Positions 492 through 59,437 of a stretch of 60,019 nt of DNA are shown one piece after another. Made by a program: the position numbers and the translations under genes. The DNA is taken from positions 1 to 60,019 of the forward strand of contig JAYEFY010000048.1 of the NCBI GenBank assembly GCA_034658815.1, written 5' to 3'. The stretch is from Patescibacteria group bacterium. GTDB taxonomy: Bacteria; Patescibacteriota; Minisyncoccia; Moranbacterales; DUUL01. Every line of letters starts with the position of its first letter. The stretch's first letter is position 1. The notes under the pieces are model-generated. The model did no database searches, was not told the DNA's origin, and worked only from the letters and a program-made list of their open reading frames with translations.

Positions 492-734
492 TTGTAACAA
501 GAAAAACATAAAATGACCTACTGGGTGTAAATCCCGAGTCCTTGGGACTCTAACCAACTGAGCCAAGCGCCCTTGTAACAAGAAAAACATAAAATGACCT
601 ACTGGGTGTAAATCCCGAGTCCTCGGGACTCTAACCAACTGAGCCAAGCGCCCTTGTAACAAGAAAAACATAAAATGACCTACTGGGTGTAAATCCCGAG
701 TCCTCGGGACTCTAACCAACTGAGCCAAGCGCCC
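492..734 (-). repeat. Three tandem 81-bp units: tRNA-Val 5' half with a palindrome replacing the 5' anticodon-stem strand, plus a 17-nt AT-rich spacer
   Basis: Units 492-572, 573-653 and 654-734 are identical except one base (543); palindromes at 532-547, 613-628 and 694-709. Confidence 0.95.
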
Positions 735-758
735 TTGTAATGGGGCTTTGACCATACG

Positions 759-58328: not shown

Positions 58329-58474
58329 TATGCTGGGGAGGAGGGATTTTCGCCTCGTCTTCACTAAAGTTCAGACTTCGTTGTCCAGGGCAGCGCTGAA
58401 AGCTGTTCGCTTCCAGCGACACTCGCTTATCTCACTTTGTTCGATGCTCGCTTCTGCCCGTTCGAATCCCTCTC
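58329..58474 (-). repeat. Duplicated tRNA-Gln 3' end plus an inverted T-arm copy
   Basis: 58329-58348 equals 58521-58540; GTTCGAATCCCTC at 58460-58472 is inverted relative to the tRNA T arm. Confidence 0.75.
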
Positions 58475-58524
58475 TCAAAACACACAAACAAAAAACGGAA
58501 CAAGCCTTTTTTCATTTGTGTATG

Positions 58525-58596
58525 CTGGGGAGGAGGGATTCGAACCCCCGAATCACGGGACCAGAACCCGTTGCCTTACCGCTTGGCTACTCCCCA
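58525..58596 (-). tRNA. tRNA-Gln(CTG)
   Basis: TGGGGAG/CTCCCCA acceptor, ACGGG-TTCTGGT-CCCGT anticodon arm, GTTCGAATC T loop. Confidence 0.96.
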
Positions 58597-58745
58597 AGAA
58601 ATATTTTGTAAAAAACTTTGTCCCGTTTCAATCTTGACCACTCTTTTTATCCCATCCAAGCGGTCAGCTTGCCCGCCCGAACGTACCATTCGGTACGGGC
58701 GAGCCCGCCCGTCCGAAGCTTTAACGCAGGCGGGGCTACTCCCCA
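58562..58745 (-). repeat. 184-bp direct repeat, copy 1 (tRNA-Gln 5' half, upstream DNA, and a REP-interrupted tRNA 5' tip)
   Basis: Near-identical to 59097-59280 (535-bp offset). Confidence 0.9.
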
Positions 58746-59002
58746 ATGTTATTTTGTGTAAATAACTCCTTTAGTTGTTGGCGTAAAAATCTTTTTCCTT
58801 CAGTAGTTTTCAGATATCGTTCTCTTCGTTCAGCATCTTGCGATAATAAATATGCTTCGTAATGAATAAGCTTAACAGGTAAACGCTTACTTGTGAACTT
58901 TGATTTTCCAAGTTTATGTTCCTCAACTCTTCTTTTTAAGTTGCTCGTGCACCCAGTATAAATCTGCAAATTATTTAAAAGTAAAATATAAACGTAATGC
59001 AT
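58736..59002 (-). CDS. Minimal GIY-YIG nuclease, 88 aa
   Basis: YVYILL...IYTGCT, RRVEEH, RLPVKLIHYEAY, AERRERYLKT; stop codon supplied by the tRNA-derived TGGGGAGTAG. Confidence 0.9.
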   Translation of the reverse strand: MHYVYILLLNNLQIYTGCTSNLKRRVEEHKLGKSKFTSKRLPVKLIHYEAYLLSQDAERRERYLKTTEGKRFLRQQLKELFTQNNIGE

Positions 59003-59059
59003 TTTGGAATATTTGTATTTAATACCTACAGAAATTTATTGCACTACCGTAGGAACCAT

Positions 59060-59095
59060 CATGTCATTCGACATGATGCCATGTCGAATGACATG
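59060..59095. repeat. Perfect 16-bp-arm inverted repeat whose arms are themselves hairpins
   Basis: CATGTCATTCGACATG-ATGC-CATGTCGAATGACATG. Confidence 0.9.
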
Positions 59096-59096
59096 G

Positions 59097-59280
59097 CAGA
59101 ACCCGTTGCCTTACCGCTTGGCTACTCCCCAAGAAATATTTTGTAAAAAATCTTATCTCGTTTCAATCTTGACCACTCTTTTTATCCCATCCAAGCGGTC
59201 AGCTTGCCCGCCCGAACGTACTATTCGGTACGGGCGGGTCTGCCCGTCCGAAGCTTTAGCGCAGGCGGGGCTACTCCCCA
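59097..59280 (-). repeat. 184-bp direct repeat, copy 2; its tRNA half ends exactly after the anticodon
   Basis: TGGGGAGTAGCCAAGCGGTAAGGCAACGGGTTCTG, then the 59060-59095 palindrome. Confidence 0.9.
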
Positions 59281-59368
59281 AGATTATATCATTCCAAGTT
59301 TGTCGAGGTTCAATCATTTGACGGGGTAAAAATTGCTTCGTGTAGATATAGAAAGTATTTCAGTGCCA

Positions 59369-59417
59369 AGGGATCCTTCGACTTCTCCCGCTAAGCGGGA
59401 TTCACTCAGGATGACAA
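59369..59417. repeat. REP-like element related to the right part of 25792-25947
   Basis: AGGGATCCTTCGACTTCTCCCGCTAAGCGGGATTCACTCAGGATGACAA. Confidence 0.65.
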
Positions 59418-59437
59418 AAAGTAATATGAAGTGAAGA

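Follow-up and report, generated by a model that had tools for sequence, protein, structure and literature searches.

Double-hairpin elements (DHEs) of fungal mitochondria (Allomyces, chytrids, Schizosaccharomyces) consist of two adjacent GC-rich hairpins, are dispersed and near-identical across species, and are thought to be mobile; they occur between genes and in variable segments of rRNA genes, and they stay in the transcripts (PMC10085805, PMC2800124). Repetitive extragenic palindromes (REPs) are palindromic units of 20–40 bp, often arranged as inverted pairs with the potential to form a larger hairpin; some of them are located in genes (PMC3733652). In the tRNA cluster of T4-like phages the GIY-YIG enzyme SegB cuts tRNA-containing DNA and amplifies the tRNA and nuclease unit in tandem, and the units share microhomology between the tRNA 5′ end and the nuclease gene 3′ end (PMC13096335). 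Here we describe a 40-nt DHE that lies in a dead copy of a tRNA-Gln(CTG) gene, upstream of an 88-aa GIY-YIG nuclease open reading frame (ORF), in a 60,019-nt stretch of DNA of a Patescibacteria group bacterium (contig JAYEFY010000048.1; the whole stretch is referred to as the window). We are highly confident of its description as a site-specific, structure-conserved and strand-symmetric element of dead tRNA copies that is bounded by a 2-base repeat, belongs to tandem units and is linked to a nuclease clade.

All coordinates below are window positions and all features of the locus are on the minus strand; the contig is denoted C48 of the host genome, G000. A single C (59096) separates the anticodon CTG of the tRNA copy from a perfect inverted repeat with two 16-nt arms (59060–59075 and 59080–59095, 100% complementary, 4-nt gap), each of the form CATGTC-N4-GACATG. 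This arrangement had been pointed out in an earlier note on this DNA and was borne out; from base composition, only 0.0003 perfect 16-bp inverted repeats with loops of 0–10 nt are expected per window. The same note had let the tRNA copy stop at the anticodon, which needs correction, as five bases beyond the 40-nt element carry the anticodon arm on. Because the flanks match the intact tRNA on both sides of the block, its insertion into a dead and truncated tRNA-Gln copy, between positions 36 and 37, is well supported. At a paralogous locus on contig C50 of the same genome, ATCCT follows the insert in the same pattern. ARAGORN called no tRNA at the dead copy (59097..59131), and Rfam, whether at gathering or at looser thresholds, matched only the tRNA.

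A covariance model of the 40-nt block was searched against 151 genomes of the order (76 genera). Its best match in the host genome was the window copy (E 1.4e-11), and the family was found in 23 genomes of 15 genera, with near-identical 40-mers in different families of the order and with most matches scored on both strands, as expected of a strand-symmetric element. The host genome (1.0 Mb) has seven sites at four loci (C48, C50, C16 and C26). Together with the copy of genome G012 and 25 copies from other genomes, 33 distinct sites were inspected. As read from the printed flanks, 27 of the 33 lie in T-arm sequence, which reads GGTTCG^...^AATCC at sense sites and GGATTCG^...^AACC at antisense ones; a strict T-loop script pattern recovered only 17, because antisense, A57 and variant T-loops are missed by it. 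The tRNA-Gln anticodon loop holds three sites (window, C50 and genome G070), two further sites are partly T-arm and one is elsewhere. The usual site is well supported as the central C56-R57 step of the T-loop in tRNA gene fragments, with both bases repeated on either side of the element.

The two bases that precede the element are identical to its last two at 20 of 33 sites (CG 11, TG 8, CT 1), compared with 1/33 and 0/33 in the controls (p about 2e-16 against 1/16, with relatedness ignored). At the TG sites that were checked (C16, L103, L107) the adjoining intact tRNA has A57 in its T-loop, and hence the repeated dinucleotide follows the target. The DHE is a 38-nt core bounded by a 2-base target repeat, and the window copy can be read in this way, as the core plus a repeat of the target dinucleotide TG. 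The anticodon arm and the T-arm of tRNA-Gln (GGGTTCTGGTCCC and GGGTTCGAATCCC, respectively) agree at all but 3 of 13 positions; by mimicking the T-arm, the anticodon arm becomes a secondary target. All copies are in tRNA gene fragments, outside any tRNA predicted by ARAGORN; they face either way with respect to the tRNA, and an intact tRNA lies within 600 nt of 22 of the 25 other-genome copies. Similarly built double hairpins at tRNA-Ser loci were not detected by the covariance model.

Insertion next to a short motif in either orientation would also be expected of a REPIN (paired-REP)-like miniature element moved by a Y1 transposase, either a REP-associated tyrosine transposase (RAYT) or one of IS200/IS605 type. 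This is the main rival of the nuclease-driven spread proposed below, and we consider it unlikely. The hairpins would be single-strand recognition structures, insertion would take place 3′ of a motif (TTCG, TYYG) exposed in T-arm-like DNA hairpin loops, and the nuclease would be a neighbour sharing the same refuge. Two inverted palindromic units that can form one long hairpin are the architecture of a REP doublet, whose oppositely oriented units fold into larger structures and may stand inside genes too (PMC3733652). Moreover, one 220-aa protein of the host genome has an HUH-like NHYHF motif and matches Y1_Tnp (PF01797, E 3.5e-8); its gene carries, and precedes, a T-arm-like palindrome arranged as a hairpin of hairpins. 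DHE copies in both orientations, and copies that lack a nuclease gene, fit a transposase acting in trans. A Y1 match is present in 17 of 23 DHE-positive and in 69 of 128 DHE-negative genomes, a weak association with relatedness ignored (p = 0.058). However, six DHE-positive genomes have no Y1 match, and one Y1-less genome that is 100% complete (G131) has eight DHE matches, which represent four distinct sites on both strands. The palindrome of the Y1 gene differs from the DHE, and when the window element was examined as a REP, it showed no unpaired GTAG or CGTC tag at either end, no cognate RAYT with the same repeat, and a low copy number in its own genome (the seven sites above), whereas REPs are high-copy. 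Insertion of IS200/IS605 type is not known to leave a target repeat, and a repeat was present at the majority of the sites inspected here. As a separate observation, the Y1 ORF (C41:3190-3900) contains a T-arm-like 17-nt palindrome in frame, followed by a hairpin-of-hairpins of two inverted palindrome copies, and a doublet of this palindrome is also present at C11:15740-15800.

Hairpin 2 of the DHE is nearly the reverse complement of hairpin 1, which makes the element strand-symmetric and the window copy a 'hairpin of hairpins'. It had been noted that the block could fold as one long stem or as two short ones, and be switched between them. We compared the two folds in four copies: the window block, the C50 paralogous tRNA-Gln locus, the closest orthologous locus in G012, and a copy downstream of tRNA-Lys in G018. 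With the two short hairpins lengthened by their flanks to 7 and 9 bp (16 pairs), the two-hairpin fold was paired in 98.4% of cells, with both partners altered in 7 of 16 pairs and a covariation of 0.50, and none of 500 shuffles was as good. For the long stem these values were 82.8%, 1 of 16 covarying pairs and 0.18, and 164 of 500 shuffles were as good. The compensatory changes show, on a small sample of four sequences, that the two-hairpin structure has been kept; the switchable long stem did not hold up and was rejected as the conserved structure, since it did no better than shuffled controls. As DNA the window block reaches -18.2 kcal/mol (z = -7.55), a stability equalled in 0 of 200 shuffles. 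The window copy has the long stem as its predicted minimum (DNA -18.2, RNA -26.1 kcal/mol; 35–51% of the ensemble), whereas the C50 and G012 copies have the two-hairpin fold as theirs; the perfect long-range match is, to judge from these copies, peculiar to the window.

Direct repeats of 191 nt (94% identical) bound a 344-nt unique segment that holds the 88-aa ORF, and the locus is well supported as a partial tandem duplication of a unit composed of a GIY-YIG gene and tRNA-Gln (Table 1). The dead tRNA-Gln copy exists because the spacer, the GIY-YIG gene, its upstream region and the tRNA 5′ part were tandemly duplicated. The left repeat is made up of a 12-nt tRNA start and a palindrome-filled remnant B′ (together 59287-59136), a promoter-like site and the dead tRNA nt 1-35; in the right one the 12-nt tRNA-Gln start is accompanied by a remnant B, likewise filled with palindromes, by a promoter-like site and by the first 35 nt of the intact tRNA-Gln gene. 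The stop codon of the ORF falls within the 12-nt copy of the tRNA-Gln 5′ end. The promoter-like site ahead of the dead copy has its twin at 58603-58631, upstream of intact tRNA-Gln; this consensus scan is weak, with three sites found versus 1.9 expected in shuffles.

The left-repeat region aligns to contig C50 at 91% over 410 nt. There, the last ∼45 nt of another nuclease gene copy precede the matching repeat unit, and the structure is therefore a decayed tandem array; ahead of the left repeat in the window, an upstream remnant of the nuclease gene was not significant (43 of 500 shuffles align equally well). The nuclease gene is identical between window positions 58879-59002 and C50:1-124 (124/124 nt), while the leaders upstream of the ATG, including the spacer 59003..59051, have diverged and the DHEs agree at 35 of 40 positions. 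Identical ORFs in spite of divergent leaders and DHEs suggest that the ORF underwent gene conversion recently. The end of contig C50 falls within the nuclease gene, which suggests an assembly break caused by the repeat, and tRNA-Gln(TTG), missing at a contig end, was not assembled. The tandem-duplication layout was also found at tRNA-Ser-GCT on contig C18, L003 and L008. Two arrangements recur: a dead 5′ tRNA copy with palindromes, the nuclease gene and the intact tRNA, or in mirror order the intact tRNA, the nuclease gene and a dead 3′ copy with palindromes. Among the contig pieces of relatives that align to the stretch, none reaches across the whole locus: a 193-nt contig (X2, record 14) covers 59057-59126 with seven differences, and in another (X1, record 7) the tRNA 5′ part is 61 nt from the nuclease gene, versus 97. 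Two DNA sequencing runs matched the stretch, with a word share of 0.04 each, and no RNA run did.

Duplicated tRNA sequence at both sides of a small ORF brings to mind a different origin, in which the palindrome marks an integrase crossover in the anticodon loop or is what remains of a tRNA intron. The anticodon loop and the T-loop are sublocations of tRNA genes used by integrases, and both are insertion points here. However, the 344 nt between the direct repeats hold no recombinase and only the nuclease ORF with a family match, the duplicated part of the tRNA is the 5′ and not the 3′ part, and no intron family of Rfam matched. Since the interrupted copy is truncated 5 nt past the insert, it could not be spliced into a tRNA. 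The connection with introns and integrases drawn in the earlier note thus left no signature of either in the ORFs or in Rfam; both were rejected on anatomy and are largely refuted, and we regard them as extremely improbable.

Table 1. Features of the tRNA-Gln locus, in window coordinates
Feature	Position	Strand	Basis or details
DHE, 40 nt	59057..59096	-	Repeat finder and sequence; covariation across four homologues
DHE hairpin 1	59079-59096	-	7-bp stem, loop ATTC
DHE hairpin 2	59057-59078	-	9-bp stem, loop GAAT
Dead 5′ tRNA-Gln(CTG) copy, nt 1-35, anticodon-terminated	59097..59131	-	100% identical to intact gene
Five bases GTTCC extending the anticodon arm past the insert; end of tRNA homology	59052..59056	-	GTCCC in intact gene
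AT-rich spacer, putative 5′ untranslated region (UTR), 49 nt	59003..59051	-	Third, weaker stem-loop at ∼59025-59053 (fold prediction)
88-aa GIY-YIG nuclease ORF, minimal Slx1/UPF0213 type	58736..59002	-	Pfam PF01541
Right copy of 191-nt direct repeat	58562..58752	-	Family D1, 94% identical
Left copy of 191-nt direct repeat	59097..59287	-	Family D1
Intact tRNA-Gln(CTG) gene	58524..58596	-	ARAGORN; Rfam tRNA, 62.1 bits
Promoter-like site TTGAAA-17 nt-CAAAAT, immediately upstream of dead tRNA copy	59138..59166	-	Consensus scan
Additional tRNA-Gln 3′ fragment, nt 57-73, downstream of gene	58332..58348	-	Direct repeat D2
Inverted copy of tRNA-Gln T-arm	about 58458-58480	-	

Downstream of the intact gene, the tRNA-Gln 3′ end and the inverted T-arm copy ∼50 nt further on (58458-58547) form a possible long hairpin across the terminator region.

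The earlier note had placed the break points of such loci at the anticodon loop, and had named a uniform distribution along the tRNA as the outcome that would speak against this. We scored the position of the first palindrome in 35 dead 5′ tRNA copies, several of which are orthologous pairs, so that the tests overstate the significance. The first palindrome comes after the D-stem 3′ strand in 11 copies, the D-loop in 10, the anticodon loop in seven, the T-loop in three and other positions in four; with two mismatches allowed, the G012 tRNA-Gln copy (L002) is a possible fourth T-loop case. Breaks in loops are in excess (20 of 35 versus 12.0 expected, p = 0.0045), and to this extent the claim survives. 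Its specific part does not, as the main hot spot is the D-loop with the 3′ D-stem (21 of 35, p = 9e-8) and the anticodon loop holds seven breaks versus 3.8 expected (p = 0.08). In the anticodon stems, the variable region and the 3′ acceptor strand there are no breaks, versus ∼14 expected.

Beyond the palindrome, tRNA homology often resumes. Moreover, a 20-nt palindrome in the dead tRNA-Glu copy of the host genome is absent from the corresponding copy in a congeneric genome. By this presence and absence, together with the resumed homology, the palindromes are later insertions, and comparison of the two genomes shows them as evidently mobile. In the tRNA-Val(TAC) pseudo-copies of the window (492-740 and 85-160) a 16-nt palindrome replaces the anticodon-stem 5′ strand and adjoins the anticodon loop, as had been noted before. 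This Val locus has three tandem 81-nt pseudo-copies, each composed of nt 1-25, the 16-nt palindrome and nt 33-49, a GIY-YIG ORF at ∼165-414 on the minus strand, and a 3′ pseudo-copy beyond the nuclease gene; because the first 84 nt of the window repeat the start of the nuclease gene, the array runs off the contig end. On contig C38 (4773-4855), ARAGORN's 'tRNA-???', which has a 4-base anticodon, is a dead copy of tRNA-Met nt 1-37 in which the anticodon loop is followed by a 16-nt palindrome; the real tRNA-Met lies 110 nt downstream, and the interval contains no nuclease gene. Nested GC-rich palindromic repeat families occur genome-wide inside longer inverted repeats, two of their cores having 77 and 50 copies (at most two mismatches), and one GC-rich copy is at ∼59380-59410 of the window (59340-59420 region), 250 nt upstream of the DHE and immediately ahead of the tRNA-Gln array.

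Such an abundance of palindromes allows a neutral reading, in which dead tRNA copies simply tolerate GC-rich palindromes as debris, with neither function nor any link to the nuclease, and the symmetry of the DHE stems from a recent duplication. We count 294 GC-rich perfect hairpins in the 1.0 Mb of the host genome besides the dispersed families just described, one member of which is close to the locus itself, and dead tRNA copies are occupied by several different palindromes. Debris would hardly select its site so specifically (T-loop centre at 27 of 33 sites, 2-base repeat at 20 of 33), stay near-identical as 40-mers across different families of the order, or covary in its stems. It would also not be kept immediately upstream of all ten closest nuclease relatives (among the matches listed) while the tRNA position varies. 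Hence we judge the neutral reading to be quite unlikely.

The 88-aa ORF matches Pfam PF01541 over residues 1-70 (E 6.1e-13) and no other domain, is related to PDB entries 1ywl and 1zg2 (E 1e-6), which are named as bacterial Slx1-family members (PMC1564403), and was assigned to no family by NCBIfam. It has the GIY-YIG catalytic domain alone, as in the minimal Slx1/UPF0213 class (YhbQ, YazA; ∼90-100 aa), and not the separate DNA-binding domain that gives homing endonucleases specificity for long sites. The host genome has 11 GIY-YIG ORFs of this family. Homologues are present in 33 of 41 relatives and in 130 of 151 genomes of the order, with up to 15 per genome; they are multi-copy, patchy and often broken, many with in-frame stops. 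Counted by hand over 113 GIY-YIG copies in 100 loci, 66 have a same-strand tRNA within 400 nt (42 downstream, 24 upstream only) and 47 have none, a few of these 47 being located in 16S rRNA. In a tree of 99 copies, lineages track the identity of the adjacent tRNA, with 25 label changes, whereas 300 shuffles gave 42.7 on average and never fewer than 38. In genes at least 57% identical to the window ORF (eight in other genomes, two in the host), a DHE is present 18-170 nt upstream in all ten, among the matches listed; it occupies either the T-loop or the anticodon loop, depending on the gene. This bears out the proposed tie between element and nuclease gene. Genome-wide, homologues occur in 23 of 23 DHE-positive and 107 of 128 DHE-negative genomes (p = 0.024; weak, relatedness ignored). 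The patchy and broken copies, the lineages bound to given tRNAs and the 124 identical nt behind diverged leaders would be indirect signs of a free-standing homing endonuclease gene.

Two further settings of the family were observed. A GIY-YIG clade without nearby tRNA has a conserved ∼25-nt motif (TTCACCCTGTTAAATAATTTTAAAT-like) immediately upstream of the ATG (L009, L013, L015, L016, L019, L034, L053, L054, L059, L069, L077). Another ORF of the family interrupts the 16S rRNA gene ∼70 nt away from the 5′ end of that gene (C48:127,260-127,640; also L043 and L067) and is flanked by a 17-bp inverted repeat that extends an rRNA helix in the manner of an intervening sequence, and the rRNA is not duplicated.

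The position of the DHE raises the question of a role at the RNA level, as a structure in the leader of the nuclease mRNA that acts as stabiliser, processing signal or riboregulator, by switching between long and short stems or by separating the mRNA from the tRNA-like 5′ part. The element is on the coding strand between the promoter-like site of the dead copy and the ORF, and co-transcription of the dead copy, the hairpins and the ORF is plausible, the promoter being a consensus match only. The element, whose last base is 59057, is separated by 54 nt from the ATG (59002), and not quite by the ∼57 nt given before. The conserved hairpins, their regular place ahead of the ten closest relatives, and a window long stem that as predicted minimum would let both folds coexist, agree with such a role. 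However, the long stem is not conserved, and spacer length and sequence are not conserved either. GIY-YIG genes lie within 600 nt of only eight of the 25 other-genome copies, some copies are antisense to the tRNA, the strand-symmetric design suggests action as DNA, and no Rfam family matched the element. The nuclease-specific riboregulator suggested in the earlier note, and an RNA-level role in general, are thus improbable.

We propose instead that small GIY-YIG nucleases of the Slx1/UPF0213 type, encoded beside tRNA genes or inside 16S rRNA, would cut DNA that codes for stem-loops with a 2-nt stagger. GIY-YIG homing and restriction enzymes leave 2-nt 3′ overhangs. Repair of the breaks would give rise to partial tandem duplications of the nuclease-tRNA unit, as with SegB in phage T6, and would also permit DHEs to be copied or ligated into the cut loop sites. 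Only insertions in redundant, dead tRNA copies would survive, and an occupied site could no longer be cut; the hairpins would reach the leader of the nuclease transcript as a by-product rather than for a purpose. In phages, tandem tRNA-segB repeats are driven by SegB, a GIY-YIG enzyme that adjoins tRNA genes (PMC13096335). As a whole, the explanation that nuclease breaks in the loops of tRNA genes underlie the duplications as well as DHE spread is given slightly less than even weight, and its component that the spread depends on the nuclease is held more tentatively. A further step, which we find doubtful, would regard the minimal Slx1/UPF0213-type GIY-YIGs of these small-genome bacteria as selfish, structure-guided homing nucleases of stable-RNA genes (tRNA loops, a 16S rRNA helix) and the 38-nt DHE as their hyper-parasite or as an immunity plug, which would be copied into a 2-nt staggered break at the centre of T-loop-like hairpins.

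Several points weigh against the nuclease-driven explanation. Site-specific cutting by a UPF0213-type protein is putative, for a protein of 88 aa with a catalytic domain and no DNA-binding domain. Seventeen of the 25 other-genome copies have no GIY-YIG gene within 600 nt, 16 of the 23 DHE-positive genomes have no close nuclease relative (at least 57% identity) among the matches listed, and the co-occurrence of DHE and GIY-YIG is weak because homologues are found in most genomes of the order anyway. T-loop sequences remain uncut in the intact tRNA that adjoins the cassette and in every other tRNA; without restraint, cutting would thus be lethal, and the explanation does not account for immunity. 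The 2-base repeat would likewise result from recombination between matching core dinucleotides. The linker ahead of hairpin 2 pairs with the repeated bases (pairs 19-40 to 21-38), which suggests selection on the hairpin itself, and a passive plug would not need this. Moreover, the genome also encodes the RAYT-like Y1 transposase, and the DHE loci compared come from related genomes and are not independent events.

To our knowledge, no role has been assigned to the minimal Slx1/UPF0213-type GIY-YIG proteins, a very large bacterial family. If true, the proposal would give this family (UPF0213/YhbQ-like) a concrete activity, namely cutting of the DNA of tRNA and rRNA stem-loops, and would show that a very small palindrome can have a defined target within the tRNA motif that is most conserved; as hyper-parasite or plug, the DHE would count as one of the smallest known mobile elements with site specificity, directed at the universally conserved T-loop. 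The proposal would also explain why tRNA loci of these uncultured bacteria have many gene fragments, partial copies in tandem and breaks in the assembly, with effects on tRNA annotation and completeness estimates, of which the missing tRNA-Gln(TTG) is an example. The colonisation of tRNA genes by such elements and nucleases is a wider habit of these small-genome bacteria, and apparently undescribed. In the full-text literature we found neither double hairpins targeted to the T-loop nor bacterial UPF0213-type genes embedded in partially duplicated tRNAs, although supplements and papers outside its coverage may hold one. A recent phage study, in which a GIY-YIG enzyme amplifies tRNA genes, connects with this proposal (PMC13096335).

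Compared with known systems, the window element resembles the mitochondrial DHEs in its two conserved hairpins and dispersed copies, a likeness that is architectural only. It differs from them in its bacterial host, its precise target at the T-loop centre with a 2-base repeat, and its partner, a minimal Slx1/UPF0213-type GIY-YIG. In Allomyces, a mobile endonuclease ORF reportedly travels with a duplicated piece of its target gene. With REPs and REPINs the element shares the inverted palindromic pair and a genome that contains a Y1 transposase gene, but it has no GTAG/CGTC tag, is low in copy number, lies inside tRNA gene fragments and carries a 2-base target repeat. Integrative elements at tRNA genes keep the gene intact by a partial duplicate, and they too use the anticodon loop and the T-loop; unlike them, the unit in the window has no integrase, duplicates the 5′ part instead of the 3′ part, and is only ∼0.5 kb long. 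SegB is a larger enzyme with additional DNA-binding modules. The likeness to it consists in tandem units and in a nuclease stop codon placed within the copy of the tRNA 5′ end, whereas the nuclease described here is catalytic-only, belongs to a cellular genome and is known from sequence alone, and its tRNA copies are truncated and filled with palindromes. Thus, the closest architectural relatives of the element are the fungal mitochondrial DHEs and REP doublets, and its closest functional precedent is SegB.

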